Assembly: GCA_000004695.1 (NCBI GenBank)
Contig: CM000151.3
Coordinates: forward strand, 224,001 to 288,000
Direction: 5' to 3'
DNA from: Dictyostelium discoideum
Taxonomy: Eukaryota
DNA length: 64,000 bases
Notes under the pieces: generated by a model
What the model was told of the DNA's origin: nothing
The model's input: the letters and a program-made list of their open reading frames with translations, nothing else
The model's database searches: none
Position numbers and translations under genes: made by a program
Shown: positions 15,132 to 63,112 of the stretch, piece by piece
Numbering within the stretch: the stretch's first letter is position 1
Layout: each line of letters starts with the position of its first letter

Positions 15132-15171
<40 letters not shown>

Positions 15172-34016: not shown

Positions 34017-35749
34017 ATGTCAACAAGTAAAAAAATTAAAACAGATAATAATAAAATATTACAAGATGTGATTGATTATGAAATTTTAAAATCTTTAATA
34101 AATTATTTATTAATCAGCAAAAATAATAAAACAAATTATAATAATACTATTAATCAATATAAAATTAATAAATTTTATTTAAATAGAAATGAAATATTAA
34201 ATTATATATTAGTTTCAAAAAAGTGGTATAATTTTATATCATCAACAATATCAAATAATATTATTGATAATAAATCATTTGAACATTGGTTAAAAATTAA
34301 TTATAATAAAAATAAATCATTTATTGAAAATTACAATAACCAAAATCAATATGATAAAAATAATTTAATTTTTAATGACAAAGAAGATAATCAAAATAAA
34401 ATTAGTTTTAATAAAGAGTTTTCAATTATAAAAATCAAAGAATCAATAATCAATGATTATTTTAAATTCAATTTATTTTTAGATGATATTACAATTGATG
34501 ATTTTAAAGAAATTAAAAATAAATTTGAAAATAATCAATTACTTTATAATAGAATTGTAGTTAATGTTAAAACTGGTTATGAAGGGAATCAAGACGATAG
34601 TATTTTATTCGAAATACATGAATATATATCAAATGAAAATTCAGAAAACATATCAAATTTATTTAAAATATTAGAATTAAATTATAATTATTTGGAAATT
34701 GAGGGCTATAATCCAAGCTCTGAAGAAGATGATGATGAAAGTAATAAGAAATGTACTGAATTATATTTAAATAATTTATCAATTGCTGGTGTTGATAGAG
34801 ATGTAGGTGAAGATGAAGAAACAGTAAAGATATTCAAAATTTTCAAAGGTAAAAATTTAATTTATGATGGATCTGATGTTGCTTGTGATTGTCCAACACA
34901 TGTCGATTATTCAGCATTATTTGATCCAAATAATTCAGGTCAACAAGTTGAATCAATTAAAGTACAAAATAGATTAGATGGTGGTGAATATGTCGAAGCA
35001 CGTCATTTAATCAAAGTTAATCAATTTGAAAATTTACATTCAATTACAATACCAATTAATTCATTTCAAATATTATCAAACCTATCTGAAGAAATGGGAT
35101 TTAATAGTTTCTATAGTAATAGTACAGATTCAGGTAATTCAGAAAATATGAAATCCGAATTAAACCAAATGATTAATTCATTCATTACAAGTAAATCTTT
35201 AAAGAATTTAAATATATCATCCATAGAAAAAGAAGATTCAATTTATAGTGATGATTATGATGATGATGAAACTTTTGCTAATAATATTAATGAAACTATA
35301 GAATCATTTTCAAATTCATTTATACCATTATTTTCAGAATCAAATACATCAATTGAAAGAATTGAATTTGATTGTTGTGGTTTATTAAATATTAATACAT
35401 TTTCAAATTTATTAAAAAACAAATCAATTAAATATTTATATTTATATGATAATAGTGATTTCATTGTTTACTCTTCAAAACAAACTGGTCGTGGTGGTAA
35501 TGATTTACATAAAGAACCTATTTCAATTAATCAATATTTATTTGATAATATATTTTCATCGCCATTAACATCAATTAGACATTATAAAATTAATATCAAA
35601 GAATCAAATCAATTCAAATTAATATTTAATTTAATATTAAATAATATTTTTAAATTACAATTATATTCATTAATATTTGAATTAAATGAAAATGAGTTAG
35701 TTGGTGAATTTGTTAAAGAATTTAAAAATTTAATAAATAATATTTCAAT

Positions 35750-35786
<37 letters not shown>

Positions 35787-35915
35787 AAAGAATCAAATAT
35801 AAATTTAAAAGAAATTAAAATTAAAATCGGAGATGATGAATATATTCCTGAATTAAATAATATTAATAATCCATATTTCACAACAGTAATAAAGAAATTA
35901 CCAAAAAAAAATTAA
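34017..35915 (+). CDS. member A (632 aa) of a tandemly arrayed Dictyostelium-specific family. N-terminal F-box-like motif (DYEILKSLINYLL ... NEILNYILVSKKWYNFIS), acidic linker and a conserved C-terminal domain.
   Basis: Intact intronless ORF. Family-conserved blocks: ETVKIFKIFKGKNLIY, YSALFDPNNSGQQVESIKV, VEARHLIKVNQFENLHSITIPINSFQILSNLSEEMGF, IERIEFDCCGLLNINTFSNLL, PLTSIRHYKI, NPYFTTVIKKLPK. Confidence 0.7.
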
Positions 35916-36279
35916 ATAAATAATATTGGTTAATGAAAATTAATTATTATAAATAGTTTTAATAAAATTTTATTATTATTATTGGTTTTTATTGGTATTA
36001 TTATTTTTTTTTAATTTTTTAATTATTAACCATTTAGATATTAATAAAAAAAAAAAAAAATTTAAGCCCCAATTTAATTGAAAAAAAAAAATATATTTTT
36101 AAAAATATCTTTTTTTTTAGATATTAATAAAAAAAAAAAATAAAAAAATAAAAAAAAAAAAGTTTTTTTGGATAATTTTGAGAGAAAAAAAAAAAGTGAA
36201 GCTTTCATTTTTTTTTTTTTTTTTTTTTTGCTTAAAATTCATCATTCTAAAACACACTTTATTATTTAAACAAATAATA

Positions 36280-38361
36280 ATGCCAAAAAATAAAAAAATA
36301 AAAACAGATAAAAATAATAAAATATTTCAAGATGTTATTGAATTTGAAATTTTAAGATCAATAATCAATTATTTATTAATCAGCAAAAAAAAAAAAAAAA
36401 ATAATAATTATAATACTAGTAGTCAATATAAAATTAATAAATTTTATTTAAATAGAAATGAAATATTAAATTATATATTAGTTTCAAAAAAGTGGTATAA
36501 TTTTATATCATTAACAATATCAAATAATATTATTAATAATAAATTATTTGAATATTGGTTAAAAATTAATTATTACAATAAATCATTTATTGAAAATTAT
36601 AATAATCAAAATAAATATGATAAATATAATTTATTTTTCAATAACATAGAAGATTGCAAAAATAAAATTAGTTTTAATAAAGAGTTTTCAATTATAAAAA
36701 TCAAAGAATCAATAATCAATGATTATTTTAAATTCAATTTATTTTCAAATCATATTACAATTGATGATTTTAAAGAAATTAAAAACAAATTTGAAAATAA
36801 TCAATTACTTTATAATAGAATTGTAGTTAATCTTGAAACTGATTATGGTAGCGATGATGATGATATTTTATTTACAATACATGAATATATATCAAATGAA
36901 AATTGGGAAATCATATCAAATTTATTTAAAATAATAGAATTAAATTTTCATTTTTGGTTAGGTGAAGGTTATCAACCAAAATCTGAGGAGGAGGAGGAGG
37001 AGGAAGAGGAGGAGGAGGAGGAAGATCATCATGATACTGATGAATGTTGTAGTCCAAAATCTGAGGAAGACGATCATGATGAACATTGTAGTCCAAAATC
37101 CAAAGAGGATGATGATCATGACGAAGGTTGTCACCCAAAATCTGAAGAGGAGGAGGAGGAGGAGGAGGATGATCTTGATGATGAAGGTAATAAGAAATGT
37201 ACTGAATTATATTTAAATAGTTTAACAGTTGTTGGGTATGATCAAGATGTAGTTGAAGATGAAGAAACAGTAAAGATATTCAAAATTTTCAAAGGTAAAA
37301 ATTTATTTTATGATGGATCTGGTGATTCAATTGATACGTATACACATGTCAATTATTCAGCATTATTTGATCCAGATAATTCAGGTCAACAAGTTGAATC
37401 AATTAATGTACAAATTGAAACTATTAATGAAGAATTCGTTGAAGCACGTCATTTAATCAAAGTTAATCAATTTGAAAATTTACATTCAATTACAATACCA
37501 ATTAGCTCTTTTCAAATATTATCAAGTTTAGCGAAAGAAATGGGATTTACTAGTTTCTATTATAATAGTAAATCAGAATTTGGTAATTCAAAAAATATGA
37601 AATCAGAATTAAATCAAATGATCAATTCATTCGTTACATGTAAATCTTTAAAGAATTTAAAAATAACATCGGTAAATTTAACAGATTATCATATCAACTA
37701 TGAAGGTTATTATGATGGAAATGGAGATCTTGAAATTTTTGCTAATAAAATAAATGAAACTATAGAATCATATTCAAATTCATTCCAACCATTATTTTCA
37801 GAATTAAATACATCAATTGAAAGAATTGAATTAGATTGTATGCGTTTATTAAATATCAATACATTTTCAAATTTATTAAATAATAAATCAATTAAATATT
37901 TATATTTGTATGGTGATAGTGATTTCATTGTTTACTCTTCAAAATCAAGTGGTTATGGTGGTGGTAGTGAATTACATGAAGAATCTATTTCAATTAATCA
38001 ATTTTTATTTGAAAATATATTTACATCACCATTAACATCAATTAGACATTATAAAATTTGTTTCAAATTATCAAATCAATTAAGATTAATATTTAATTTA
38101 ATTTTAAATAATATTTTCAAATTACAATTATATTCATTAATATTTGAATTCGATGAAAACAAATTAGTTGGCGAATTTGTTAAAGAATTTAAAAATTTAA
38201 TAAATAGTATTCCAACTCAAATACAACAAAAATCAAATAACATAAATTTAAAAGAAATTAAAATTAAAATTGAAGATGATGAATATATTCCTGAATTAAA
38301 TAATATTAATAATCCGTATTTCACAACAATAATAAAGAAAATAGAAAAAAAATATGATTAA
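36280..38361 (+). CDS. family member B (693 aa from ATG 36280), with an expanded acidic insert containing (GAG)n Glu runs and three CSPKSEEDDHDE-type repeats
   Basis: MPKNKKIKTDKNNKIFQDVIEFEILRSIINYLL... The same conserved blocks as member A. The track start 36178 is TTG. Confidence 0.7.
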   Translation: MPKNKKIKTDKNNKIFQDVIEFEILRSIINYLLISKKKKKNNNYNTSSQYKINKFYLNRNEILNYILVSKKWYNFISLTISNNIINNKLFEYWLKINYYNKSFIENYNNQNKYDKYNLFFNNIEDCKNKISFNKEFSIIKIKESIINDYFKFNLFSNHITIDDFKEIKNKFENNQLLYNRIVVNLETDYGSDDDDILFTIHEYISNENWEIISNLFKIIELNFHFWLGEGYQPKSEEEEEEEEEEEEEDHHDTDECCSPKSEEDDHDEHCSPKSKEDDDHDEGCHPKSEEEEEEEEDDLDDEGNKKCTELYLNSLTVVGYDQDVVEDEETVKIFKIFKGKNLFYDGSGDSIDTYTHVNYSALFDPDNSGQQVESINVQIETINEEFVEARHLIKVNQFENLHSITIPISSFQILSSLAKEMGFTSFYYNSKSEFGNSKNMKSELNQMINSFVTCKSLKNLKITSVNLTDYHINYEGYYDGNGDLEIFANKINETIESYSNSFQPLFSELNTSIERIELDCMRLLNINTFSNLLNNKSIKYLYLYGDSDFIVYSSKSSGYGGGSELHEESISINQFLFENIFTSPLTSIRHYKICFKLSNQLRLIFNLILNNIFKLQLYSLIFEFDENKLVGEFVKEFKNLINSIPTQIQQKSNNINLKEIKIKIEDDEYIPELNNINNPYFTTIIKKIEKKYD

Positions 38362-40271: not shown

Positions 40272-41340
40272 TCAATTAGGTCCATTTGAACAAAGTCTCA
40301 TTGTTTCTTTAATAAAGGCAACGATATAAGGGGCATTTTGTTTATGATTGAAATTGACATATTCATCATCTTTGACAGCTTTTTTAATTTCTAGATATGC
40401 AATCTCTTGAGGTTCTGGACGATTACATAATTGTAAAATTACCCAATTCATTGTGATTGTAACTGTACCAATGGCTGGTCCAAAAATATCAAAACAAATT
40501 TGATTGATTTTCATTGTATCTTCTTTAGTGATTTCATTTAATCCATATTCAATTAACAAATCATCCATTAAATCTCTTGGTTTACTTGGATCAATTGACT
40601 TAAAATGATTTTCATTTTGACTACTAATTATTTGTCTAACGATATCGCAACCTTTTAATCTTCTAGTAAAGAACCAATCATAAAGTGGTGAGAAAATTTC
40701 AAAACAATCAAATGCAGTTAGTTTTGAAAGATTACCAAAAACATGTTCAACTGCATTACCAATAGTTCTTGACAAGCCACTTTCAACTGATAAATCTTGA
40801 TTAAACATATATTTGAATAACATTGAACAAGCATATCCTTGAATATGTCCTTTTGGATAAAACTTAAAATAATTATTTAATAAATTAATATTAATAATTT
40901 TAATTGTAATTATTATTTCTTTAAAAAAAAACCTATAATTTCATTATTATTCGAAATTTTTTCAAGTGAATCAATAAATTCAATTGCTTTTTCTTCCATT
41001 AATTTTTTAGATGTATGAACTCTTAATTATTAAGAAACACTTGATTTTGCTCTTTTCCATTCGTCATCAGATGAGCTCATTACACCTAATCCATTACTTG
41101 AAGCATATCTCCAACCTGGAACTAAAAGTGATGGTTTGTAAAGGAAATTTTCATCTTTTTGAAAATACTTTACATCATAATTTGAGACAAATAAAAATAA
41201 TCTTTCTCCAATCCATGCTCTTACAATTAATTCATGTTCTTGAATTTTGAATAATTCCCAAAATCTAATTTGAACAACATTTCCAAGAATAGGAAATGCA
41301 ATTGGTCCACTTGGAGATTTTGTATGAATTTTCTTATTTT
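40272..41340 (-). pseudogene. cytochrome P450 pseudogene. N-terminal and central part only, with an in-frame tandem stop TAATAA and no heme-binding (FxxGxRxCxG) region.
   Basis: Minus-strand translation gives SPSGPIAFPILGNVVQI (Pro-rich hinge), DEWKRAKSSVS-stop-stop-LRVHTSKKLMEEKAIEFIDSL, an 80-bp intron, then ...RDLMDDLLIEYG...ICFDIFGPAIGTVTIT (I-helix)...NRPEPQEIAYLEIKKAV...APYIVAFIKETMRLCSNGPN-stop. No downstream exon encodes the Cys-ligand loop before the next element at about 40050. Confidence 0.6.
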
Positions 41341-42224: not shown

Positions 42225-45200
42225 ATGATTGAAGGAAATTTTGAAAAAAACAATGATAACCAAGTTGCAATAATTGGTCTTGGGCTAAGATTACCAGGTA
42301 ACTCGGGATCTCCTTTAGAGTTTTGGAAAAACTTGCTTGGTGGTTTTGATGGAATTGTTGATTCTAATGAAAGGTAAAAAAAAAAAAAAAAATTTAAAAA
42401 ATAAATAAATAAAAAATTAGAATTATAAAAAAAAAAATAAAAATAAAAAAAAAAATAAAAATAAAAATAAAAAAAAGTGATGGCGACTCACCTCTAACAC
42501 ACCATATTTTTTTTTATTTTAATTTTTTTCTTTTTTTTCATTTTCATCACCGTTGTCTTCATTTTTTTTTTTTTTTTTTAAATTATTATTTTTATTTATT
42601 TAGATGGAGCGACACATTCCATAGTATGGGAGAAATCTCAAATAAGAATGCAGGATTAATTGACTTGGAAGAGAATTGGCATTCTTTTGAGCCATTGTTT
42701 TTTGGGATCAATCCAACCGATGCTAAACAAATTGATCCACAAATTAAATTAATGTTAAAGTTAACATGGGAAGCATTTGAAGATGCATCAATTGATCCTT
42801 TAAAACTCAGAGGAACAAATACTTCTGTTTTTGTTGGTGCCGCAAATACTGATTATTCTTTTATTAATTTCGAATAAAATGAAGCGCCAATCAATGTTTT
42901 TAATGGTACTCTCAGCGCATTTGCAAATAGAATATCATATTGTTTTGATTTACGTGGTACTTCATTAACAATTGACACTGCATGTTCATCATCATTAAAT
43001 GCAGTTCATTTAGGATATGAATCAATTGTTAATGGTAAATCAAATTACTCTGTAGTAGCTGGTTGTAATATATTATTAAGTAATTATTATTATAATATTA
43101 GTAGCACACACATATATATAAAATAGTTTTCATATTTCTAATATTTTATTTTTATTATTATTATTATTCTAAAAAAAGATCCATATATTACTAGATCATT
43201 TCATTCAATTAATATTACAGGTAAATCTGGTAGATGTAATTCATTTGATGAATCTGCTGATGGTTTTGTACGTTCAGAAGGTGTTGTTGTATTAATTTTA
43301 AAAAGATTATCACTTGCAATTCAAGATAACGATCAAATTTATTGTGTAATGAAAGGAAGTAGTTCAAATGTAGATGGTACTTTTAAGAAAACAAACTTTT
43401 TTGCACCTTCAAAAAGTGCACAATCAACTAATATCAAAAATGCATTTTTATCATCTAATGGTGCAGTGAAATATCAAGATATTGATTTCTTTGAATTACA
43501 TAGTACAGGTACACAAGTAGGTGATCCAATCGAAGTTGAAGCTGTTGCTGATATTTTTAAAAATGTTAAACAAGAACCATTATTAATTGGATCAGTTAAA
43601 TCAAATATTGGTCATCTTGAACCTGCATCAGGTGTAGCATCATTAGCAAAAGTTTGTTTAATGTTTAAACATCGTCAATTTGTAAAGAATATCCATTTCA
43701 ATAACCCAAATCCAAATATTAAATTCAAAGAATGGAATGTTAAAGTATGCACAGAAACAACAGCATTCCCAGATAGACAAGTATCAATGGCAATCAATAG
43801 TTTTGGTATAACTGGTTCAAATGCATGTGTTTTATTGTCTGAATATATTAAACCTTCAGAATTAAAAAATCAAACATCCATGAAATTAAATGAAAAATCA
43901 AAATTATTAATACCAATATCAACCAACTCAAAGAAGTCACTCGAACAATTCAAATCAAAACTACTTGAAGAAATTGATACATACTCTGAAAGCTTAACTT
44001 TTGAAGAGTTTGCAATGTTCCAAGTTTATTCAAAAACAACCAAATTATCACAAAGATCAGTTTTAATTGGTAATGATTGGAATGATTTAAAAATTAATAT
44101 AAATGAAATTATTTCAACAAAAAATAATAAATCTGGTAATATTATCAAATCAAATGATATTAATCCACCATTAGTATTTTCATTTTGTGGTCAAGGTCCT
44201 CAATATTCAAAAATGGGTTTAGATTTATATGAAAATGAACCAATATTTAAACAATATATGGATTTATTAGATTCAATACTATTTAAATATTATGGATATT
44301 CAATCATTCAAAAACTAAGATCAATTAATGATGATCCAATTCTAATTAATGAACCAATATTAGCTCAACCATCTATATTTATGATTCAAATATCATTATA
44401 TAAATTATATTTGCATTGGGGAATCACACCATCAATAATAGTTGGCCATAGTTTAGGAGAAGTAGCCAGTGCATTTTGTTCAGGTATGATTGATTTAGAA
44501 ACAGCATGCTTCGTGATATATAAAAGAGCAATCATTCAAAATAAAACCAATGGATCTGGAAGACTTTTAGCAATTGGTTTAAATCTTGAAGAATTCTATA
44601 ATCAATTTTCAAAGGAATATCCAGAAATTGAAATTTCATGTTTTAACTCACCATCATCAATCGTTGTATGTGGTAATGAACATGATATATTAAATATTTC
44701 AAAATCATTAAAAGAGAAACAAATATTCAACTCTTTATTAGGTACACCATCAGCATTTCATTCATCAAAACAAGATATAATCAAAGATGAAATTATAGAA
44801 TCAACCAATCATATCCGATCAAGACCACCTTCTATAACAACATTTTCAACAGTCACATCAAATAAATTCGATAAAAATACACCTTATAATTCAAATTATA
44901 TATTTGACAATTTAAGAAAGCCAGTATTATTTCAACAAACCATTGAAAACATATTCAAACATATTGAATCAAATGATTTAGGTAATTCAGTAATATTTTT
45001 AGAATTGTCACCTCATCCAACTTTAAACCATTATGTTAAAGAAATGATTCCAAAGAATTCAAATTACTTTTTAAACAAAGATTCAATAAGTGTATTATCA
45101 TCAATAAATAAGAAAAAAGAAGATATCAACGAAATTCAATCAACAATTTCACAACTTTATTGTTTTGGTTACAATGTCGATTTTAGTGCCCAATTTAAAT

Positions 45201-48200
45201 CGGAAATAACATCAAATTCATTCAAGAAATGCTCATACATAATACCACATTATCAATGGGATGAATCATTATTTTGGAAAGAAGGTATTTCATCAATAAA
45301 TAATAGAAAGAATGGAGTATCAATAAATCAACTTGGTAATAAAAATGAATCATCACCACATATATCATATACATCATATATCGATATTAAAGAAGAACCA
45401 TTTAGATTCTTAAAAGATCATCAATTTCGTGGTAAATCAATTTTCCCAGGAGTTGGTTATTTGGATATTATTTTAAAACTTTTCCCAAATCAAGATTTAA
45501 CCATACCACTTTTAGAATTTAAATCACAATTTATATTATCTGAAGGTGTAAAAAAAACTCTTACAACCAATCTCTACAAAAGTGCAAAGAATGAATATAG
45601 AGCAACATTTAATTTTAAAGATCAAACAAGTGGTAAGTGGGTTCAATCTGCAAATAGTAGAATTTTAATGAAAAGTTTAGATGTAACAGTTAAAAAAGTT
45701 GATATTCAATCAATACGTGATCAATGTAATTGGTCAACTTTGAAAAGAGATCAATTATATAACTCAATTAAAAACTATTCAAACATTTCAATATTAGAAT
45801 CATTTCAAAGAATTGAAGAAGCTTCATATGGTGATAATAGATGCCTGTGTAAAATTTCATTGGATCCAACTTCAAGCTATGATAATGAATCATTTTTAAA
45901 TATTTGCATTATTGATACATGTATACATCCATGTATTTTCTTTGATAACCCAGCTTCGTCTGTTTTTGAAAGAATTGAACATTTAAAAATTTATTCTTCA
46001 AGTGTTCCATTAACTGCAGAAGATAGAGTGAAGCAACAATACGTTTACTGTTATGTTGAACTTATTAAACAATTTAGTGATTTTATGTATTTAAAAACAA
46101 CTTGTTTCTTAAAAGATGGTACTGTTCTATTACATTCTCCATTGGTAACAATTGCATCTACACTATCAACAAAAAATGAAATTGATATTGAATGTCCAAA
46201 CAATCAATTATTTTCACAATGTCTTCAACCAAAAGATTCAATTTTACAATCACCATTAATATTGAAAGAATATTTTAATCAACAACTTCAACTTCAACAA
46301 TCAAATATCATTTCAATATCTACTCTATCATCATATCTTTTTTCCACATTAAAGAAAATATTAAATAACCTCACCATTGATGAATTTCAAAATGATTCAC
46401 TTGAACAGTTGATTGAAAAATATTCATATATCTTGGAAGAAGTTCAAGAAGTTGGTACTATCAGATCCAATTTAATCCTCTTAACAATCAACTTTTTATT
46501 AACACATCACAAACATATTGATCAAAACCAAGTTTCAAACTTTCTCTTGAATAACATTCCAAACGAATTATTAGTTGTTGATAATATTGTTTCAAATAAA
46601 GGTATTTCACATATTGGTATTTATCAACATCAATTAATTTTAGATATAATTTCAAAATCAATTATTCCAATCGTAAATGAAAAAATAGTTTTTAGAATTT
46701 TAGAAATTGGATGTGGTGTTGGTGAATTAACTAAACTAATCAATGATAAATTAGAATCAATTTTAAATGATAATCCATCATATAACATTGATATAGAATT
46801 TGTATTTTCAGATTATACCGATTCAAAAGTATTATTAATTAAAGAAAGATTGTTCAGTTCAAAAAAGAGTTGTTTCTTTAAAATTATTGATTTAAACAAA
46901 CAATTACAAGAACAATCATTTTCACCATCTTATTATGATTTAATTATTCTATCAAATACAACAAATCAAATTAAAGATATCAACACATCAATTTCATTTG
47001 TAAATGAAATTTTAACTCCAAACGGTCATTTATTAATTTTAGATACAAATTTCATTCAAACATCAATAGATGAAGATTATTATTTAGAAAACTACAAACA
47101 ATGGTTATCATTTAATTATTTAAATTCTGGTAGTGGTGCAATGAAACTAAATCAATGGAATCAATTATTAATAAATGATTTGAAATTTAATAATTTCATA
47201 TGTTCAACAGGTGAAATTGAACCATATTTGATTCAAGTTCAAAAATCAAATTTATCAAATTCAATTAATTCAGTTAGTAAAGAGCATACATCAGAATATG
47301 ATCAAATTATAATTTTTGGTACTTGTGATGAAATTAATATTGGATCTTCTTTCTATGGCTTGGTTCCAATAGCAATAAATTCAATTGATAAGTTTAAAGA
47401 ACATGTCAAATTACAACAATTAACTGATAAATCATTAATATTATTTATTGAATCATTAAATCTATTAACAGTTGATAATTTTAATCAAGTCTCAATGAAC
47501 TATATAGAAATCAATCAACATTTATTAAAAAATGAAATTTCAGGTTGTAAACATATTTTAATTTCAAGAAATGTAAACTTTGAAACTTCAAACTTATTTG
47601 GATCATCATTAATTGGTTCATTTAGATACTTTTGTGAATTCAATCAATTAAATATATATTCATTTGAATTTGAAGGTAATAATATCCTTAGTGGTGATAA
47701 ATTATTTAATATTATTCAAGAATTATCAAATTCAAGCAAACATTCACAAAATGAATTTTCAATCAGAAGTGATGGTAAAATTTATTATGAAAGAATTAAA
47801 TTAGAATCAAATTTAAAATTAAAATATAAATCAAAATCATATATTGAAAATAAAAATGAATTAGTTTCAAGATTAAAACCAGATTTAACATTTGCATTAG
47901 AAGCGGTATTACCATTGAATCCAAATTTTGTTGAAGTTAAAGTAATGGCAAGTGGTGTTAATTTTAAAGATTTCTTAGTTTATCGTCAATTAATTAATAT
48001 GGCAAATTCAAATGAAAATGGTGATCCTTCAAAACCACAATTTGGATATGAACTAAGTGGAATCGTTACCAAAGTCGGTAAGAATGTGACCAAATTCAAA
48101 GTTGGTGATCATGTAATGGGAGGTGCTTTTCATACATTTTCATCAAGTGTTCATGTAGATCAAGAAAGAATCGAATTAAAACCATCAAACATTTCTTGGT

Positions 48201-49016
48201 TTGAAGCATCACACTCTTTAGTTTATTTAACTTCATATTGTAGTTTATTCGAACTTGGTAGATTGGATTTATATGGTTCAAGTGAAACAGTTTTAATTCA
48301 TTCAGGAAGTGGTGGTATTGGTTTATCTTGTATCGATTTATTACAAGTATATGGATTTAAAGGATATTTATTTGTAACTGTAGGCTCTGAAGAAAAGAAA
48401 CAATTTTTAAAAGATCGTTATGGTGATTTCATCACAGAGATTTATTCAACTAAAAATACAGACTATGAATATTTAATTAAAGAGAAATTAATTGAATTAA
48501 AAGCACCATCTCAAAAATATGGTAGTTTTTCAATGATTTGTGTGGATTTAATTATAAATACTTTATCAGCAGATTATATGTCCTGAATTTTCAAATAATC
48601 ACAACTTTATCCATCGTTCGTCAAATTATAAAATTCATCAAGATACTTTAGGTAAAACAATATTAATAACAGGTCAAGCAGGTCTTTCAGATACAATCAT
48701 AAAATGGATAAGAGAAAAAAGATCAGATTCTATTGAATCAATAATAGTATTATCAAAATCACCAATTAAATTTGAATTAGAAAGAGCAATTGGTAGAATA
48801 AGATCAACAAATTTGAAAATCTATTTTAAACAAGTTGATATTTCAGATGAAAAACTTTTATTAAAATCAATTAATCAATTATTTGAAGAAAATAAAAATA
48901 TTAAACCAATTGAATCAATATTCCATAATGCATTTTCACCAGCAGAATGTGAACCATTAGAAATTGATATGAATCATTTAATTATTGGTTTGATTAAAAA
49001 AAAAAAAAATGAATGA
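42225..49016 (+). pseudogene. type I iterative highly reducing polyketide synthase (KS-AT-DH-cMT-ER-KR'), disrupted. Exons 42225-42373, 42604-43079 and 43179 onward. There is an in-frame TAA in KS at 42875-42877, a +1 frameshift between ER and KR at about 48556-48586, and truncation of KR at 49016.
   Basis: KS: [49 protein letters not shown]|R|WSDTF..., TIDTACSSSLNAVHLGYESI, GSVKSNIGHLEPASG. AT: GQGPQY...IVGHSLGEVASAFCSG. DH: HQFRGKSIFPGVGYLD. cMT: ILEIGCGVGELT. ER: VLIHSGSGGIGLSCIDLL. KR (in the +1 frame): ILITGQAGLSDTIIKWI...ends GLIKKKKNE-stop. No ACP follows. Splice sites: AG|GTAAAA, TTTAG|A, AA|GTAATT and AAAAAG|AT, phases consistent. Confidence 0.7.
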
Positions 49017-49116
49017 TCACATCCATTTTTTTTTTTTATATTTTATATTATTTTGTGCAAAATAAAAAAATAAAAAAATACACAAAAAACATATTCCCAA
49101 AAATTCAAATTTGCTG

Positions 49117-49306
49117 TTGTAGGGAATTTTCAATAAAATTTCACTGCCCAGCCAAAAAAAATTTAGGGTCAGTGATTTTTTTTTTTTCACTGTGAAATTA
49201 TCAAAATCACTGACCCTAAATTTTTTTTTTTTTCAAAAAACAAATAAAGTTTGTTATTTTTTTGTTTTTAATTATTAATTCCTATTTTAATGGTTAATTA
49301 TTATAA

Positions 49307-49338
<32 letters not shown>

Positions 49339-50712
49339 TTTTTTCTCATTTTTTTTTTCTTTTTTTTTTATTTTCATATTTTCATTTTAGGACAACAAAT
49401 TATCAAACATTAAAGAAATCTAAAACTTCAGAATATTTATCATTTGAAAATAATTTAATTTAAAAGAAATGTGAAGAGTTTATATTATTTGTTATTAATG
49501 AATTACCAAAATTAAAATACTTAATTGGGTATTAATTTCAAAAGATGAAAGAACAAAAGCAGCAAAATTAGATAGTGAAGGTTTCTTTCAAAACAATTCT
49601 AAGTGTTACTCCAGTTGTTATCAATAATAAAAAATAAATAATAATAATAATGTGATATCATCAGCTCAATCTTCACTATCATTAAGTAGTGCATCAACAC
49701 CAATTCCAACTCCATTAAATACTAGTAGTAATAATATTGGTGGTAATACTACTACAAGTGTATCAGTGGGATAATCCCCAACAATTAGGGGTATACCATC
49801 ATCACCAGATCAACAAGTTTTATTCAACGCAAACCATCAGTCGGTGCAATATGATGCCAAAATTAAATTCTTCTTTGAATTGATCAACTGATTTCCTTGG
49901 TAAAGAAAGAGAAAATCATCAATCATCTTCACCTTCATATTCATCATTATCAATATCATCATCATCACAACAGCAACATAATAGTAACAATCATCCAAAA
50001 TCGATTGATGAAGCACCTGAAGTATTATCACCATTTGATATTTTACAATCAAAAGTTAATGCAGAGAATTCTTTATCTTCATCACAAGATTTAAATCAAC
50101 ATAATGTAACAACGGCTAGTCAAATTTTACAAGAAATTAAACCAACTAAAGAATTAACTAAACAAGAAACTGAAGCATGCAATTCCAGAGGAACCAATTG
50201 AAGAATGTAATAAATCAACTACAACCACTGCAATTAAGATCATCTTCTTCATCTTCTTCATCTTCTACAACAACAACAAAAACAACAACAACATCACCAC
50301 CACCACAACAACAATTAGATTCGCCATTACCATTACCAGTTAATATTATTAATATGCCAATGGATGATGATGAACTTATTAGTGATGGTACAATAAGTGG
50401 TGCTTAAACTAATGATGGTATCAATTATTGTACCATCATTAGTTAAAGAATCATCAAGAGAATCATTATTGGCTACAACTATTGATAATTCAACATTATC
50501 AACTACACCATCACCATCTCCAAAATTACCAACTCTTGAAACTGCTAAACCATTGTTACATCATCATCTTCTTCTTCTTCAAACACCACTACTCAAACTA
50601 ATAAAGTTTCTGGTGGTTCTGCTAAAGAAATTTGGACTAAAATTGATCAAAATACTGCACCATCAACTCCATCTAAAATTTTACCAAAAAGATTACCTTC
50701 TCAATCAAATCT

Positions 50713-50774
<62 letters not shown>

Positions 50775-51342
50775 TAATTAATTAAATAAATAAACAAAAA
50801 GAATAAATAAATAAAAACAATAAATAAAAAAAAAGATAATAAAATAAAACTACAATCTTAATTGAAAAAATAAATAAATAAATAAATAAATAAAATAAAT
50901 AAATAAAATAAAACTAGTTTTAATAAATCTAAAACTTTGTAAATATGTTTTGAAAAAAAAAAAAAAATTTTTATTTTATTGTTTAACTAAATTTGGTTTA
51001 AAATTCAAATAAAGAACTATCTACTCTAAAAAAGAAACCCTTTTCAAATGATAATTGTTGAACACCATTTCTACAATCACTACCGTCATGAGTAGAAAAT
51101 TACCATTTAAACTAAATTGAATAAATCCACTCGATAACCTGTTGGAAATTAGCTACTTGATGTTTTTTAATTATTATTTATTGTTTATTTGTTTATTTGT
51201 CTATTTATTTATTCATTTATTTATTCATTTATTTATTCATTTATATATTCATTCACTAATAATATTACCTACTTTAAAATTGAAAAAATGAAAATGAAAA
51301 AAAAAAAAAAAAAATTGAAAAAAATTGAAAAAAAAAAAATTG

Positions 51343-51391
<49 letters not shown>

Positions 51392-51589
51392 TCCCCATAT
51401 TTTTAATATTAAATAAAATAATAATTAAACCCAAAAATAAAATTCCCATTTAATAAACTTTATTTGTTTTTTGAAAAAAAAAAAAAATTTAAGGGCAGTG
51501 ATTTTTTTTTTCACTGCACAACTGTAGTGAAATTAAATAATAAAATTCACTGCGCTGGGCAGTGAAATTTTATTGAAAATTCCCTACAA
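49117..51589. mobile_element. candidate non-autonomous DNA element or pair of MITE-like insertions. A 36-bp inverted repeat pair (49117-49152 and 51554-51589) flanks 2.4 kb of degenerate Ser/Thr-rich coding fragments.
   Basis: TTGTAGGGAATTTTCAATAAAATTTCACTGCCCAGC at 49117 is the exact reverse complement of GCTGGGCAGTGAAATTTTATTGAAAATTCCCTACAA at 51554. Adjacent 15-bp perfect hairpin arms TTTAGGGTCAGTGAT / ATCACTGACCCTAAA at 49162-49176 and 49206-49220. A related CACTGCCCTTAAA arm near 51490. No transposase ORF. Confidence 0.4.
50714..50772. repeat. (AAT)n microsatellite, about 19 units
   Basis: Read directly. Confidence 0.9.
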
Positions 51590-51866
51590 CAAAATAAATT
51601 TTTTGCTACCTCTAGTTTTTTTTAATCTATAATAAAAATATAAATATCCAAAATTATTAATTGAAATTTAATTGATTTTTAAATTGACAAAAGAAAAAAA
51701 AAACCGATATCTTGGACATCCAAGACAAAATTTTTTTTTTTTTTTAATTTTTTAATTTTTTTTCTTTTTTATTTTCTGCTTTTTTTTTTTTTTTTTTTCT
51801 TTTAAACAAAAAAACATAAATAAAAATAAAAAATAATAAATAACAAATAAATAATAAACAATTATA

Positions 51867-55157: not shown

Positions 55158-55447
55158 TTTGTTTTTTTTTTTATTTTTATTTTTTTTTTTCTAAGTATGT
55201 TGTTATAAAAGTGTAGTGTTCATATTTATTTTAATTTCTCTTTTTTTTTTGGTGTACACCAAAAAAATAATATAAAGAAATAATAATGTTAACAAAAAAT
55301 AAAAATAAATATTTCAAGATATTATTTTTTTGAAATTTTAAAATCCATGTGTTTTTATTTTTTTTTGTTTTTTTATTTTTTTTTTTTTTAAGTTTTAAAT
55401 ATTTTCATTTTTTTAACTCATTAGTCAGCTCACTCTTACAAATAATT

Positions 55448-57436
55448 ATGTCAACAAATAAAAAATTTAAAAAATATAATAATAAAATATTTCAAGATGT
55501 TATTGATTTTGAAATTTTAAGATCTATAATCAATTATTTATTAACCAGCAACACAAATAAAAAAAATAATAATAATAATTACAACACTAGTAATCAATAT
55601 AAAATTAATAAATTTTATTTAAATGGAAATGAAATATTAAATTATACATTAGTTTCAAAAAAGTGGTATAATTTTATATCATTAACAATATCAAATAATA
55701 TTATTAATAATAAATTATTTGAACATTGGTTAAAAATTAATTATAATAATAATAATAATTATAATATTATTAATAATAAATCATTTGATAATTGGTTAAA
55801 AATTTATAATAATAATAATAATAAATCATTTATTGAAAACTATAATAATCGAAATCAATATGATAAAAATAATTTATTTTTAAAAAGTGCTAAACAAAAT
55901 AAAATTAGCCAATTTAAAATTAGTTTCAATAAAGAGTTTTCAATTATAAAAATCAAAGAATCAATAATTAATGATTATTTTAAATTCAATTTATTTTTAG
56001 ATTATATTACAATTGATGATTTTAAAGAAATTAAAAAGAAATTTGAAAATAATCAATTACTTTATAATAGAATTGTAATTGATATTAATATTGGAAATGG
56101 TTATGATGATTATAGTTCAAACCAAAGTGATATTATATTTAAAATACATGAATATATATCAAATGAAAATTTAGAGACTATATCAAATTTATTTAAAATA
56201 TTAGAATTAAATTATGTTTATTTGGAAATTGGGGATTATATTCCAAAATCCCCTGAAAAGGGCAAAAGTAATAATAAGAAATGTACCGAAATGTATTTTA
56301 AAAGTTTATCAGTTGATGGTTTATATGAGAACGAAGAAACAGTAAAGATATTCAAAATTTTCAAAGGTAAAAATGTAATATTTCATGGTCCAACACATGC
56401 CGACTCACCATTATTTGACCCAGATAATTCAGGTCAACAAGTTGAATCATTTAAAGTACAAACTGATTTATTCGGATCTTTTGTTGAAGCACGTCATCTA
56501 ATCAAAAGTAATCAATTTGAAAATTTACATTCAATTTCAATAAAAATTAATTCATTTCAAATATTATCAAATATATCTGAAGAAATGGGATCTTATAGAT
56601 TCTATAATAATCATAATTATAAAAATGATCCACCAGATTCGAAAAATATGAAATCAGAATTAAATCAAATGATTAACTCATTCATTACAAGTAAATCTTT
56701 AAAGAATTTAAAAATAACAGCCAATAATACTACACACTATTCAATTGAATATGATGCTTGCTATATTGGAGGTGATCATGAAACTTTTGCAAATAAAATA
56801 AATGAAAATATAGAATCATATTCAAATTCATTTAAACCATTATTTTCAGAATTAAATACATCAATTGAAAGAATTGAATTAAATTGTTGTGGTTTATTAA
56901 ATATCAATACATTTTCAAATTTATTAAATAATAAATCAATTAAATATCTATATTTATACGGTGATAGTGATTTCATTGTTTACTCATCAAAACAAAATGG
57001 TGGTAATAGTGGTGGTGGTGATGGTGTATTACATAAAGAATCTATTTCAATTAATCAGTATTTATTTGATAATATATTTACATCACCATTAACATCAATT
57101 AGACATTATAGAATTAAATTCAAAGAATCAAATCAATTAAAATTAATATTTAATTTAATATTTAATAATATTTTTAAATTACAATTGTATTCATTAATAT
57201 TTAAAATTTATAAAAACGAATTAGTTGGTGAATTTGTTAAAGAATTTAAAAATTTAATAAATAATATTTCAACACAACAAGATCAACAACAAAAATTAAA
57301 TAACATATATTTAAAAGAAATTAAAATAAAAATTGAAGATGATAAATATATTCAAGAATTAAATAATATTAAAAATCCATATTTCACAACAGTAATAAAG
57401 AAATTACCAAAAAGGTTGTGTACACTTAAAAGATAA
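55448..57436 (+). CDS. family member D (662 aa from ATG 55448) of the F-box-like tandem family
   Basis: MSTNKKFKKYNNKIFQDVIDFEILRSIINYLL...KWYNFISLTISNNIINN...IERIELNCCGLLNINTFSNLL. Conserved leader CATTAGTCAGCTCACTCTTACAAATAATT upstream. The track start 55349 is GTG. Confidence 0.7.
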   Translation: MSTNKKFKKYNNKIFQDVIDFEILRSIINYLLTSNTNKKNNNNNYNTSNQYKINKFYLNGNEILNYTLVSKKWYNFISLTISNNIINNKLFEHWLKINYNNNNNYNIINNKSFDNWLKIYNNNNNKSFIENYNNRNQYDKNNLFLKSAKQNKISQFKISFNKEFSIIKIKESIINDYFKFNLFLDYITIDDFKEIKKKFENNQLLYNRIVIDINIGNGYDDYSSNQSDIIFKIHEYISNENLETISNLFKILELNYVYLEIGDYIPKSPEKGKSNNKKCTEMYFKSLSVDGLYENEETVKIFKIFKGKNVIFHGPTHADSPLFDPDNSGQQVESFKVQTDLFGSFVEARHLIKSNQFENLHSISIKINSFQILSNISEEMGSYRFYNNHNYKNDPPDSKNMKSELNQMINSFITSKSLKNLKITANNTTHYSIEYDACYIGGDHETFANKINENIESYSNSFKPLFSELNTSIERIELNCCGLLNINTFSNLLNNKSIKYLYLYGDSDFIVYSSKQNGGNSGGGDGVLHKESISINQYLFDNIFTSPLTSIRHYRIKFKESNQLKLIFNLIFNNIFKLQLYSLIFKIYKNELVGEFVKEFKNLINNISTQQDQQQKLNNIYLKEIKIKIEDDKYIQELNNIKNPYFTTVIKKLPKRLCTLKR

Positions 57437-58898: not shown

Positions 58899-60827
58899 AT
58901 GTCAACAAATAAAAAAATAAAAACAGATAATAATAATAAAAAATTACAAGATATTATTGATTTTGAAATTTTAAAATCTATAATTAATTATTTATTAATC
59001 AACAAAAAAAATAATAATAATAATAATAATACTAGTAATCAATATAAAATTAATAAATTTTATTTTAATATAAATGAAATATTAAATTATATATTAGTTT
59101 CAAAAAAGTGGTATAATTTTATATCATTAACAATATCAAATAATATTATTAATAATAAATCATTTGAACATTGTTTAAAAATTAATTATAATAATAATAA
59201 TAAATCATTTATTGAAAATTATAATAATCAAAATCAATATGATAAAAATTATTTAATTTTTAAAAACAAAGATAATAACCAATATAAAATTAGTTTTAAT
59301 AAAGAGTTTACAATTATAAAAATCAAAGAATCAATAATTGAAGATTATTTTAAATTCAATTTATTTTTACATAAGTTTGAATTTGAAGATTTTAAAGAAA
59401 TTAAAAATAAATTTGAAAATAATCAATTACTTTATAATAGAATTGTAGTTAATGTTGATACTGATTATATGTGTGAAGATGATACTTTATTAAGAATACA
59501 GAAATATATATCAAATGAGAATCCAGAAATCATATCAAATTTATTTAAAATATTAGAATTAAATTTTGGTTTTTGGTTGGAAAATGGTTATCGTCCAGAT
59601 TCTGAAGAGGATGAGGAGGAGGGGGAGGATGATGATGATGATACTGATGATAAAGGTAATAAGAAATGTACCACTGAATTATATTTAAATAATATATCAA
59701 TTGATGGTTTTTGTATAGATGATGGTGAAGATAATGAAACAGTAAAGATATTCAAAATTTTAAAAGGTAGAAATTTAATTTATAGGGGATCTGATGTTGA
59801 AAGTGATAGTCCGACACATGTCAATTATTCAGCATTATTTGATCCAGACAATTCAGGCCAACAAGTTGAATCAATTAAAGTAAAAAATGAGTCTGATAAT
59901 GAAGAATTTGTTGAAGCACGTCATTTAATCAAAGTTCATCAATTTGAAAATTTACATTCAATTACAATACCAATTAATTCATTTCAAATATTATCAAACT
60001 TATCTGAAGAAATGGGATTTTATTCGTTATATCGTAATAATGCAGATTCAGGTAATTCAGAAAATATGAAATCAGAATTAAATCAAATGATCAATTCATT
60101 AATTACATGTAAATCTTTAAAGAATTTAAATTTATCATGTGCAAAATATATAAGCTTTAGTTTTGATGATTTTTCTCGTTTTGATCAAATTTTTGCTAAT
60201 CAAATAAATGAAACTATAGAATCATATTCAAATTCCTTTAAACCATTATTTTCAGAATTAAATACATCAATTGAAAGAATTGAATTTGATTGTATGGGTT
60301 TATTAAATATCAATACATTTTCAAATTTATTAAATAATAAATCAATTAAATATTTATATTTGTATGGTAATAGTGATTTCATTGTTTACTCATCAAAACA
60401 AACTGGTGATAATGGTGGTGGTGGTGATGATGATATTAATGAATTACATAAAGAACTTATTTCAACTAATCAATATTTATTTGATAATATATTTTCATCA
60501 CCATTAACATCAATTAGACATTATAAAATTAAATTCATAGAATCAAAACAAATAAAATTCATATTTAATTTAATATTAAATAATATTTTTAAATTACAAT
60601 TATATTCATTAATATTCGAATTCAATGAAAACGAAATAGTTGGTGAATTTGTTAAAGAGTATAAAGATTTAATAAATAATATTTCAACACAACAAAAACA
60701 AGAACAAAAATCAAATAACATAAATTTAAAAGAAATTAAAATTAAAATTAAAGATGATAAATATATTCAAGAATTAAATAATATTAATAATCCATATTTC
60801 TCAACAGTAATAAAGAAAATGGCTTGA
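58899..60827 (+). CDS. family member E (642 aa)
   Basis: Intact ORF from ATG 58899. Leader CATTAGTCAGACTCACTCTTTATAATTTAGACTAATAATAATG. Conserved family blocks. Confidence 0.7.
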   Translation: MSTNKKIKTDNNNKKLQDIIDFEILKSIINYLLINKKNNNNNNNTSNQYKINKFYFNINEILNYILVSKKWYNFISLTISNNIINNKSFEHCLKINYNNNNKSFIENYNNQNQYDKNYLIFKNKDNNQYKISFNKEFTIIKIKESIIEDYFKFNLFLHKFEFEDFKEIKNKFENNQLLYNRIVVNVDTDYMCEDDTLLRIQKYISNENPEIISNLFKILELNFGFWLENGYRPDSEEDEEEGEDDDDDTDDKGNKKCTTELYLNNISIDGFCIDDGEDNETVKIFKILKGRNLIYRGSDVESDSPTHVNYSALFDPDNSGQQVESIKVKNESDNEEFVEARHLIKVHQFENLHSITIPINSFQILSNLSEEMGFYSLYRNNADSGNSENMKSELNQMINSLITCKSLKNLNLSCAKYISFSFDDFSRFDQIFANQINETIESYSNSFKPLFSELNTSIERIEFDCMGLLNINTFSNLLNNKSIKYLYLYGNSDFIVYSSKQTGDNGGGGDDDINELHKELISTNQYLFDNIFSSPLTSIRHYKIKFIESKQIKFIFNLILNNIFKLQLYSLIFEFNENEIVGEFVKEYKDLINNISTQQKQEQKSNNINLKEIKIKIKDDKYIQELNNINNPYFSTVIKKMA

Positions 60828-61189: not shown

Positions 61190-61297
61190 ATGTTAACAAA
61201 TAAACAAATAAAAACAGATAACAATAAAATATTTCAAGATATTATTGATTTTGAAATATTAAAATCAATAATCAATTATTTATTAATTAGCAAAAAT

Positions 61298-61345
<48 letters not shown>

Positions 61346-63112
61346 AGTAATCAATATAAAATTAGTAAATTTTATTTAAATAGAAATGAAATATTAAATT
61401 ATATATTAGTTTCAAAAAAGTGGTATAATTTTTTATCATTAACAATATCAAATAATTTTATTAATAATAAATCATTTGAACATTGGTTAAACATTGATAA
61501 AAATAATAATAAATCATTTATTGAAAATTATAATAATCAAAATCAATATGATAAAAATAATTTAATTTATAAAAACAAAGATAATAAACAAAATAAAATT
61601 AGTTATAATAAGGAATTTTCAATTATAAAAATCAAAGAATCAATAATCAATGATTATTTTAAATTCAATTTATTTTTAAATAGTATTACAGTTGATGAAT
61701 TTACAGAAATTAAAAATAAATTTGAAAATAATCAATTACTTTATAATAGAATTATAGTTAATCTAGAAACTAGTTATGATGCGGATGTTACTCTATTTAT
61801 AATACATGAATATCTCTCAAATGAAAACTCAGAAATCATATCAAATTTATTTAAAATATTAGAATTAAATTATAATTTTTTGTTGCCTGGAGGTAATAGT
61901 CCAAATTTAGAAGAGGAGGAGGATGATACTGATGATGAAGGTAATAATGAAGGTACTGAATTATATTTTAATAATTTATCAATTTCTAGTTATAATGAAA
62001 ATGTAGTTGAAGATAGAGAAACAGTAATGATATTTAAAATTTTTAAAGGCAAAAATTTAATTTATAAAAGATCTCAAGTTGATTATGATTATCCAACACA
62101 TATGAATTATTCAGAATTATTTGATCCAGATAATTCTGGTCAACAAGTTGAATCGATTAAAGTAATAATTGAAACTGATGGTAATGGAGAGTCTGTTGAA
62201 GCACGTCATTTAATCAAAGTTAATCAATTTGAAAATTTACATTCAATTACAATACCAATTTATTCATTTCAAATATTATCAAACTTATCTGAAGAAATAG
62301 GATTTTTTGTGTTCTATCGTAATAATGCAGAATTTGGTAATTCAGGTACTTCAGAAAATATGAAATCAGAATTAATTCAAATGATTAATTCATTCGTTAC
62401 AAGTAAATCTTTAAAGAATTTAAATATATCATCAGTAAATTCAAACTACTCAATTAGTTATAAAGATTATGCTAGTTATGATGGTGATCATGAAATTTTG
62501 GCTAATAATATAAATGAAAATATAGAATCATTTTCAAATTGTTTTAAACCATTATTTTCAGAATTAAATACATCAATTGAAAGAATTGGATTTGATTGTT
62601 GTGGTTTATTAAAAATCAATACATTTTCAAATTTATTAAATAATAAATCAATTAAATATTTATATTTAAATAATTGTGATTTCATTGTTCACTCACCAAA
62701 ACCAATTGATAGTGATTTACATAAAGAACCAATTTCAATTAATAAATATTTATTTGATAATATATTTTCATCACCATTAACATCAATTAGACATTATAAA
62801 ATTAATATCAAAAAATTGAAACAATTAAAATTCATATTTAATTTAATATTAAATAATATTTTTAAATTACAATTATATTCATTAATATTCGAATTCAGTC
62901 AAAACGAATTAATTGGTGAATTTTTTAAAGAACTTAAAAATTTAATAAATAATATTTCAACACAGCAACAACAACAACAACAACAACAAAAAATATCAAA
63001 TAACATAAATTTAAAAGAAATTAAAATTAAAATTAAAGATGATGAACACATTCAAGAATTAAATAATATTAATAATCCATATTTTGCAACAGTGATAAAG
63101 AAAATAGCTTGA
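61190..63112 (+). CDS. family member F (640 aa)
   Basis: Intact ORF from ATG 61190. Leader CATTAGTTAGACTCACTCTTAATAATTTTAATAAATAATAATG. Conserved family blocks. Confidence 0.7.

Follow-up and report, generated by a model that had tools for sequence, protein, structure and literature searches.

A probable non-autonomous Tdd-4-family element next to a PKS pseudogene in Dictyostelium discoideum

In the 64-kb stretch of Dictyostelium discoideum DNA analyzed here (the window), a polyketide synthase (PKS) pseudogene breaks off within its ketoreductase (KR) domain, and shortly after it lies a pair of inverted repeats enclosing degenerate coding DNA. The locus raises the question of what this unit is and whether it took part in the loss of the PKS. 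A first-pass annotation had recorded an exact 36-bp inverted pair with adjacent hairpins. The 36-mer, at 49117-49152 on the forward strand and 51554-51589 on the reverse strand, indeed pairs with 0 mismatches; no further copy exists in the 64-kb window, and 100 shuffles gave 0 matches. The exact repeat is 38 bp long (49115-49152 / 51554-51591), since the TG at 49115-49116 is matched by the CA at 51590-51591, and is bounded by mismatches on both sides. It constitutes only the tip of repeats of ~145-300 bp, with ~145 bp well conserved and ~275-310 bp alignable (274 bp in the left arm, 309 bp in the right). Past the exact tip the arms diverge over ~55 bp, share a ~52-bp near-identical block (49206-49258 vs 51447-51500) and remain alignable through a T-rich tract up to 49388 on the left and 51283 on the right. 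The left arm (49115-49388, forward strand; nhmmer E = 1.8e-40) and the right arm (51283-51591, reverse strand, 3' end ...CCCTACAACA; nhmmer E = 5e-43) face outward, like the ends of a single element, and delimit a unit of 2,477 bp (49115-51591).

To place these repeats, we started from the TDD4 integrase segment XP_629668 (Additional file 1, Bao et al. 2010, PMC2836005), moved from it to D. discoideum proteins, and from those to their loci. The window-arm profile matched locus L003 at 7430-7579 (E = 1.7e-34), ~430 bp upstream of a Tdd-4 integrase ORF (94-98% identical), and locus L007 at 5642-5826, upstream of another Tdd-4 integrase. It also matched L005 at 10476-10593 (minus strand), the right end of a 62-70% identical relative; in L006, the match was to the left end of Tdd-5. 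Related termini were present in five other D. discoideum loci, four of which adjoin Tdd-family integrase genes. The right arm agrees with the left terminus of Tdd-4 in L003 at 132 of 145 positions (91%); in blastn, 51290-51592 aligned to L003 7726-7430 at 79% over 321 bp, and 49115-49388 to L003 7431-7725 at 72% over 302 bp. Over their first 32 bp, both window arms coincide exactly with the Tdd-4 termini in L003 and L007. All copies start with TGTTGTAGGG, and homology between copies stops exactly at the terminal dinucleotides 5'-TG...CA-3', ending sharply outside the TG. A local inversion-duplication without mobile-element origin would agree with the lack of a second copy of the 36-mer in the window and with the absence of a target-site duplication, but these homologous termini, four of them beside integrase genes, leave it with almost no credibility.

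Tdd-4 itself reportedly has terminal inverted repeats of 145 bp with 5'-TG...CA-3' tips. It has been placed in the Ginger2/Tdd cut-and-paste group, which is described as having a Gypsy-integrase-like transposase and 5-bp target duplications, with a 260-bp repeat given for TDD-4 (Bao, Kapitonov and Jurka 2010, PMC2836005). In autonomous members, this transposase, which resembles a retroviral integrase, combines a zinc-binding (H2C2) domain with a DDE catalytic domain. Tdd-5 (AF298206; L006), whose protein P0016 has 781 aa with Integrase_H2C2 and rve domains, belongs to the same superfamily and has a terminus starting with TGTTGTAGGGAATTTT; however, its repeat diverges after ~16 bp and is 60-67% identical to the window arms. 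Judged by this sequence comparison, the window arms are Tdd-4-type and not Tdd-5-type repeats.

The hairpins reported next to the repeats are real, and the left one is larger than first described. It is a perfect 26-bp stem with a 23-nt loop (49154-49179 / 49203-49228; DNA fold -34.5 kcal/mol, z = -6.9). Within the left arm, the outer 38 bp with the 5'-TG start are identical to those of the right arm, rearranged sequence fills the middle (49153-49205), and the inner block 49206-49258, together with the T-rich tract ending in TTTTCATTTTC, is common to Tdd-4. Window positions 49154-49192 are the reverse complement of L003 7507-7544 (97%), and on this alignment the left hairpin arose when the inner repeat block was duplicated in inverted form, replacing the two canonical 36-bp subrepeats. 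The right arm has kept two 36-bp palindromic subrepeats (TTTCACTnC..GnAGTGAA), as in canonical Tdd-4, with the palindromes CACTGC..GCAGTG and GCAGTGA..TCACTGC (fold z = -4.2). The hairpins are the normal palindromic 36-bp subrepeats of the Tdd-4 repeat, internal to it and not separate MITE-like elements; as two- or three-copy units, they are candidate transposase-binding sites. Both window arms also carry a derived variant, CACTGCCCAGC, that the canonical copies lack, which makes them the closest relatives of one another.

Because the terminus contains CCCTACAA, we had also considered DUSE, a Dictyostelium small ncRNA-gene promoter motif, and class I RNA genes, a candidate that was dropped after the Tdd-4 match. 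Scans of the whole window for tRNAs and Rfam families gave no matches, so the arms are not known RNA genes. Mapping the small RNAs that PMC4894637 lists gave no match in the window or in the compared loci; as the thug-S-derived RNA mentioned there may not be among them, this bears little on the thug elements. A metagenome scan with the terminus returned 0 matches.

The same arms allow an evaluation of the proposal that two small MITE-like palindromic elements were inserted separately, one in each orientation. Locus L001 does contain single arms that lack an evident partner (653-802 and 15532-15682), as well as short arm-like palindromic sequences (6435-6546, 11246-11350 and 12443-12524). However, each window arm has one terminus, the TG on its outer side, and on its inner side merges into the T-rich part of the Tdd-4 repeat; with no second terminus of its own, neither arm is a self-contained element. 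The hairpins, moreover, are subrepeats found in autonomous Tdd-4 copies too. MITEs are expected to be shorter than ~0.8 kb, non-coding, high in copy number and flanked by a target duplication, whereas the unit comprises 2,477 bp, has a coding-like interior, lacks a target duplication and was seen in a handful of copies. We consider two separate insertions of this kind very unlikely.

Between the arms lie ~1.9 kb of sequence in which, as had been noted, no ORF is intact; the longest has 125 aa, begins with GTG and is in a junk frame. The frame-broken Ser/Thr/Pro-rich coding fragments are present at 49389-50717 on the forward strand, where the frame changes at least 5 times with internal stops, and end in ...PKRLPSQSNL followed by a stop. 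The GC content of this segment is 29%, compared with 14-17% in the rest of the unit. Directly after the stop lies a microsatellite, first read as (AAT)19 and measured by Tandem Repeats Finder as (TAA)21 (50714-50778), followed by AATA-rich low-complexity DNA up to ~50913 and by a unique non-coding block, Y, at 50930-51047 on the forward strand. A tblastn search of the window with TDD4 gave a best E of 1.6, and the interior has neither a Pfam domain nor similarity to the Tdd-5 protein. Since the unit contains no integrase gene, it is non-autonomous. The interior also appears unrelated to Tdd-4, as judged against the 62-70% identical relative in L005 and against Tdd-5 in L006, which stood in for the 3' 2 kb of a canonical Tdd-4, an element with an SPXX-repeat region in its 3' half.

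Relatives of the interior were found within D. discoideum, and none were detected outside it. Positions 49464-50198 match residues 172-316 of DDB_G0278667 at ~95% identity, and over a stretch of 65 aa the identity to DDB_G0282771 is 97%; both are AX4 chromosome-3 gene models that differ from one another and from the window. Residues 1-171 of DDB_G0278667 have no counterpart in the window and may reflect the fusion of the gene model with a neighboring gene. In L001, blocks of the interior lie decayed among Tdd-type termini. Positions 49906-49967 and 50490-50849 match L001 12679-13128 at 81-86%, block Y is inverted at L001 14543-14660, and window 50723-51047 aligns to L001 14840-14543 at 77% in blastn, with a tblastx match as well; because of rearrangement, the order of the blocks in the L001 copy is ambiguous. 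An independent parent gene was not among the results of the protein searches, which gave only copies of the interior repeat (P0001, P0017, P0018). Capture of host sequence, as initially proposed, is thus unproven: the searches revealed no parent gene in the host, and the interior is related only to other copies of itself.

We then asked whether the unit ended the PKS. The N-terminal half of the KR domain lies at 48579-49013 on the forward strand and covers positions 2-91 of 180 of the Pfam KR profile, confirming the truncation; the fragment aligns to residues 2220-2329 of 2603 of D. discoideum Pks16 (PDB 9nju). A frameshift near 48578 separates it from a 1,745-aa ORF at 43349-48586. KR homology ends at ~48935-48990 and the frame stops at 49014-49016, ~100-130 bp before 49115. 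An AT-rich spacer of ~100 bp (49014-49114) separates the left repeat from the point where the frame ends, so the break does not abut the element. Given this gap and the independent frameshift, a causal link between the element and the rearrangement said to have killed the PKS is unproven. A search with the PKS tail for paralogues or orthologous loci in other strains gave nothing at E <= 1e-30, for which we have no explanation. When the two downstream genes were looked up in other assemblies, no presence/absence polymorphism was found, as the sole other assembly with the locus has the element.

Target-site duplications, expected immediately outside the repeats, were absent: TTTGC lies to the left of 49115 and AAATA to the right of 51591. 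The Tdd-4 copies available as controls were incomplete: that in L003 is cut by another repeat at 8519, and that in L007/L009 is interrupted, with a 3' fragment that ends near 16890. A second TTTGC at 51602-51606, 10 bp to the right of the element, could be read as a target duplication that has shifted, but this reading was unconvincing. The lack of a 5-bp duplication points to a rearranged history for the window copy and would leave room for some element-associated rearrangement. Together with the loss of both subrepeats from the left arm, it suggests that the unit is probably no longer a clean insertion.

These features could also be accommodated by a composite or chimeric origin, in which the arms derive from two different insertions of the Tdd-4 family, or in which two copies underwent ectopic recombination or aberrant transposition. 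The intervening DNA would then be whatever lay between them or survived deletions, and the PKS may have lost its 3' end in the same event. Besides the missing duplication, the differing middle 55 bp of the arms and the truncated PKS are consistent with such an origin. There is also a precedent in L003, where Tdd ends are found at rearrangement junctions: two inverted copies of a 696-bp segment are present, both of which meet a Tdd terminus precisely at its TG. Against it, the outward-facing arms share the derived variant and an identical 38-bp tip, the interior is a dispersed repeat with copies on other chromosomes and, in L001, close to Tdd-type ends, and the PKS break is ~100-130 bp away from the repeat. 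We therefore regard a composite origin as unlikely.

Based on these results, we consider it likely that 49115-51591 is a Tdd-4-family member that is non-autonomous and has had its interior substituted. Of the two options in the first-pass annotation, the first, a non-autonomous DNA transposon with terminal inverted repeats, was thus right about the kind of element, and the family can now be named. Since Tdd-4 ends enclose broken sequence and not a transposase gene, the unit is an ordinary defective copy of a transposon that is already known. It resembles Tdd-4 in its homologous terminal repeats (91% over 145 bp, ~300 bp alignable), TG...CA tips, palindromic subrepeats and host species. It differs in its unrelated interior, the lack of a 5-bp target duplication and the rearranged left arm, and in having 2.48 kb without transposase, in contrast to the 3.8 kb of the Tdd-4 reference (AAFI02000006.1:352615-356458) with its integrase-like transposase. 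A 3.4-kb, internally deleted version of Tdd-4 has reportedly been found; like the unit, it is a defective derivative that has kept both Tdd-4 ends. However, that version is a simple deletion, whereas the unit has lost nearly all internal Tdd-4 sequence and carries 1.9 kb of non-Tdd DNA. Mobilization would occur in trans, by Tdd-4 transposase supplied from autonomous copies, an enzyme that may recognize the TTTCACT/AGTGAAA half-sites of the repeats and cleave the DNA at the TG/CA tips; in rblA-null cells, Tdd-4 is reported to rise 25-fold (PMC3386910). For the foreign interior, the most likely route of entry would be abortive gap repair or template switching after excision.

Non-autonomous elements are also known from the wider group, for example Ginger2-1N1_NV of Nematostella, with 252 bp (Table 2, PMC2836005). 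As in the unit, such elements lack transposase and have kept the repeats of their family; however, they are short, MITE-like deletion derivatives with more than 50 copies, whereas the unit is long, low-copy and filled with foreign sequence. Another comparison is with Pack-MULE-type elements of plants, which are DNA transposons carrying captured gene fragments. The unit resembles them in its terminal inverted repeats around non-transposase coding-like sequence and in its several copies, but its superfamily differs and its parent host gene was not found. We know of no case of captured host-gene fragments in the Ginger2/Tdd group. It is conceivable, if rather improbable, that a Pack-type Tdd-4 element spread a host-gene fragment to several chromosomes and that recombination or aberrant transposition then cut off the 3' end of the PKS. 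If so, the PKS deletion would comprise half of the KR domain and the acyl carrier protein domain, and the locus would offer a concrete case in which a transposon drove turnover within the large PKS family of Dictyostelium.

As a defective Tdd-4-family copy, the unit leaves knowledge of transposons and PKS evolution unchanged, and its main value is for annotation. A 2,426-aa gene model in GCA_054883475.1 fuses the dead PKS with the interior of the element, and in AX4 pieces of the interior repeat are labeled as hypothetical proteins (DDB_G0282771 and DDB_G0278667). Naming the unit as a defective Tdd-4 derivative would clear these spurious genes, and as a low-copy non-autonomous partner of Tdd-4, it would be usable for trans-mobilization tests.

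The 36-mer at window positions 49117–49152 (+) and 51554–51589 (−) is exact and occurs twice in the window, with none expected by chance. The inverted repeat reported in the first-pass annotation was therefore confirmed, although the structure is larger than described. Including the adjoining TG/CA, the perfect repeat is 38 bp (49115–49152 and 51554–51591), bounded on both sides by mismatches. When the right arm (51283–51591, −) is reverse-complemented and aligned with the left (49115–49388, +), a composite repeat emerges, i.e., the identical 38-bp tip, ~55 bp differing between the arms, a nearly identical inner block of ~52 bp (ATCACTGnCCnTAAA, a T run and then CAAAAAACAAATAAAGTTT), and an innermost T-rich tract terminating in TTTTCATTTTC. 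Approximately 145 bp are well conserved, with 274 and 309 bp alignable overall.

The arm size and the TG...CA tips resemble those reportedly described by Wells in 1999 for the Dictyostelium DNA transposon Tdd-4, and this family was therefore suspected. The TDD4 integrase segment XP_629668 (Additional file 1, Bao et al. 2010, PMC2836005) was used as a protein query, and the genomic loci of its matches were compared. In addition, the two window arms and one copy from L001 (a locus of assembly GCA_054859355.1) were combined into a profile, which was searched against the Tdd loci. The search for related copies of the terminus was successful in L001 and four further Dictyostelium loci: L003 (7430–7579, E = 1.7e-34), ~430 bp upstream of a Tdd-4 integrase ORF (94–98% identical); L007 (5642–5826), upstream of another Tdd-4 integrase; L005 (10476–10593, minus), at the right end of a 62–70% identical relative in D. 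cf. discoideum; and the left end of the L006 element, whose 781-aa product contains Integrase_H2C2 and rve and is, compared by eye, close to TDD5 as given in Bao et al. At 132 of 145 positions (91%) the right window arm agrees with the L003 Tdd-4 terminus, with similarity extending to ~320 bp at 79%. Every copy starts with TGTTGTAGGG, similarity ends abruptly outside the TG, and both window arms share their first 32 bp exactly with two Tdd-4 copies (L003 and L007). Based on this agreement, the window arms are almost certainly Tdd-4 terminal inverted repeats. Both share a derived variant, CACTGCCCAGC, that canonical copies lack, which argues that they come from one element or subfamily. Separately, L003 contains a 696-bp segment as inverted duplicates of 98% identity (6735–7430 and 10276–10971). 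A Tdd-4 terminus borders one copy and a Tdd-5-like terminus borders the other, in both cases with the junction exactly at the TG. The arrangement resembles an inversion or duplication associated with a transposon.

The canonical Tdd-4 repeat carries tandem 36-bp subrepeats, each a palindrome TTTCACTAC-AGTAGC-GTAGTGAA, with two copies in L003 (7431–7573) and in the right window arm, and three in L007 (5642–5826, equivalent to 9642–9826 of locus L009). Single-stranded DNA folding indicated that the canonical repeat is structure-rich (z = −4.9); the right window arm gave z = −4.2. In that arm the first palindrome reads CACTGC-CCAGC-GCAGTG versus the canonical CACTAC...GTAGTG; both halves are changed and the symmetry is kept, which fits a conserved dyad, e.g., a candidate protein-binding site, and the subrepeat half-sites may bind the transposase. 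The left arm has neither of the 36-bp subrepeats. Its segment 49154–49192 is the reverse complement (97%) of L003 7507–7544, which follows the subrepeats in Tdd-4, and a local inverted duplication generates a 26-bp perfect hairpin (49154–49179 and 49203–49228; −34.5 kcal/mol, z = −6.9). The hairpins previously noted beside the repeat are thus present, but as parts of it (subrepeats on the right, inverted duplication on the left), and their interpretation as separate, MITE-like small elements is unsupported. Short palindromes with Tdd-like tips (TGTTGTAGTG, TGTTGTAGCG, ...AAATTTCCCTA; motifs CAGTGAAA/TTTCACT) were also observed in L001 at 6435–6546, 11246–11350 and 12443–12524, plus a palindrome near 11620–11750, and could be degraded or miniature derivatives of Tdd elements; L001 further has a separate, perfect palindrome (GAGCTCTCAATTATCTTTATC...).

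The longest ORF between the arms is 125 aa, in agreement with the earlier statement that no intact ORF is present. The Ser/Thr/Pro-rich, frame-broken coding DNA described there was likewise recovered: window 49389–50717 has coding-like composition (29% GC), the protein requires at least five frame changes, and a (TAA)21 tract (50714–50778) follows directly. No integrase was detected in the window by tblastn with TDD4 (best E = 1.6), the conceptual translation of the interior gave no Pfam domain, and the interior showed no similarity to the Tdd-5 protein or to the 3' parts of Tdd elements from L004, L005, L006 and L009. When the longest stop-free interior stretch (49884–50198) was compared with a complete set of 1.84 billion representative proteins, one match was returned, DDB_G0282771 of strain AX4 (66 aa, 97%), whose 90% cluster also includes DDB_G0278667 (316 aa). 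Residues 172–316 of the latter match window 49464–50198 at ~95%, while residues 1–171 have no window counterpart. Since the three sequences differ mutually over the common stretch and both AX4 genes lie on chromosome 3 (6.36 Mb), at least three near-identical interior copies exist. A fourth, decayed copy lies in L001, where 12679–13128 matches window 49906–49967 and 50490–50849 (81–86%) and 14543–14840 matches window 50723–51047 in inverted orientation; these blocks are flanked by a degenerate TGTTGTAGCG terminus at 11246 on one side and by a full arm, whose end is at 15682, on the other; a second full arm occupies 653–802. Judging from these matches, the interior is a dispersed low-copy repeat. 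Neither relatives outside D. discoideum nor a parent gene were detected in the protein scan and the compared loci. L001 also has degenerate Thr/Pro-rich repeat coding (THAAPPTTTG...) at 1–268 (−) and 14840–15330 (−), ~200–400 bp inward of each full arm, which could represent the internal part of a further non-autonomous family of Tdd type; no such sequence occurs in the window.

The unit (49115–51591) has the ends of Tdd-4 but lacks a transposase, and its foreign interior is repeated elsewhere. The non-autonomous transposon with terminal inverted repeats that had been proposed here can now be assigned to the Tdd-4 type. As a non-autonomous Tdd-4 derivative, it would have relied on autonomous Tdd-4 copies, whose integrase-like transposase would have mobilised it in trans; one such copy, in L003, is found on the same contig at a distance of 2.8 Mb. 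Its interior would have replaced the Tdd-4 body, most likely via abortive gap repair or template switching. Tdd-4 and Tdd-5, which Bao et al. (2010) class as Ginger2/Tdd elements, generate 5-bp target duplications (PMC2836005). At the outer edges of the unit the flanks are TTTGC and AAATA, and the target-site duplication sought there is missing. Simple decay is unlikely, since the 38-bp tips are still identical; either recombination with another copy has replaced one flank, or two elements have contributed to a chimeric unit. Given its damaged left arm, the copy may have lost its mobility.

The window has a GC content of ~22% and contains the Dictyostelium-specific repeats Dicty_CTDC and FNIP. 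Positions 41836–64000 are 99.7% identical to L002, the matching locus in a second D. discoideum assembly (GCA_054883475.1, JBTAPE010000001.1:289820–312909). Ten clustered differences (C-to-A or T-to-A) in the A-rich tract of the right arm (window 51371–51447, L002 9523–9581), where the poly(A) run is 18 bp shorter in L002, seem to reflect assembly or polishing errors rather than true divergence. Five paralogous ORFs of ~630–730 aa (33998–35915, 36178–38361, 55349–57436, 58899–60827 and 61190–63112; 83–90% DNA identity via the L002 comparison) lie on both sides of the polyketide synthase (PKS) and element region and gave no Pfam domain. Three tandem ORFs of ~1,170–1,200 aa (20515–24096, 24684–28181 and 28762–32367), the first without a Pfam match, have the appearance of a tandem gene family specific to the lineage. 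Just upstream of the PKS lies an isolated cytochrome P450 fragment (40272–40823, −; Pfam p450 profile 155–337 of 462), probably another gene remnant.

The PKS ORF (43349–48586) encodes the C-terminal part of a ketosynthase, followed by acyltransferase, dehydratase, methyltransferase and enoylreductase; of the ketoreductase (KR; Pfam profile 2–91 of 180), only the first half is present, in the next frame. The KR piece aligns to residues 2220–2329 of the 2603 in D. discoideum Pks16 (PDB 9nju), so ~270 residues, the remaining KR and the acyl carrier protein domain, are missing. A frameshift near 48578 (48570–48590) separates the enoylreductase region (...LSADYMS and a stop) from the KR region (CPEFSNNHNF...GKTILITGQAG); L002 is identical there, and the PKS is thus a pseudogene independently of its 3' truncation. 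The first-pass annotation had suggested that the element mediated the rearrangement that killed the PKS. This is unsupported given the independent frameshift and the position of the KR end: homology stops at ~48935–48990 and the frame at 49014–49016, leaving ~100–130 bp of AT-rich sequence up to the start of the repeat at 49115. The missing target duplication leaves room for an element-associated rearrangement, yet we consider it doubtful that the element caused the truncation. A 443-aa query (window 47684–49013, enoylreductase and KR) returned no protein at E ≤ 1e-30, possibly a limitation of the search index, despite many D. discoideum PKS paralogues and the near-identical L002 gene model.

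Tdd-4 was reportedly described by Wells in 1999, an inventory by Glöckner in 2001 is said to cover the family, and a 3.4-kb deleted version is reportedly on record. The family is well known and defective derivatives are expected; for a 2.5-kb form with a foreign multi-copy interior, we found no description in the accessible literature. In AX4, pieces of the unit are annotated as ordinary hypothetical genes, not as transposon genes. The practical value of the finding lies in annotation, as in GCA_054883475.1 the PKS gene model (2,426 aa) extends into the element.
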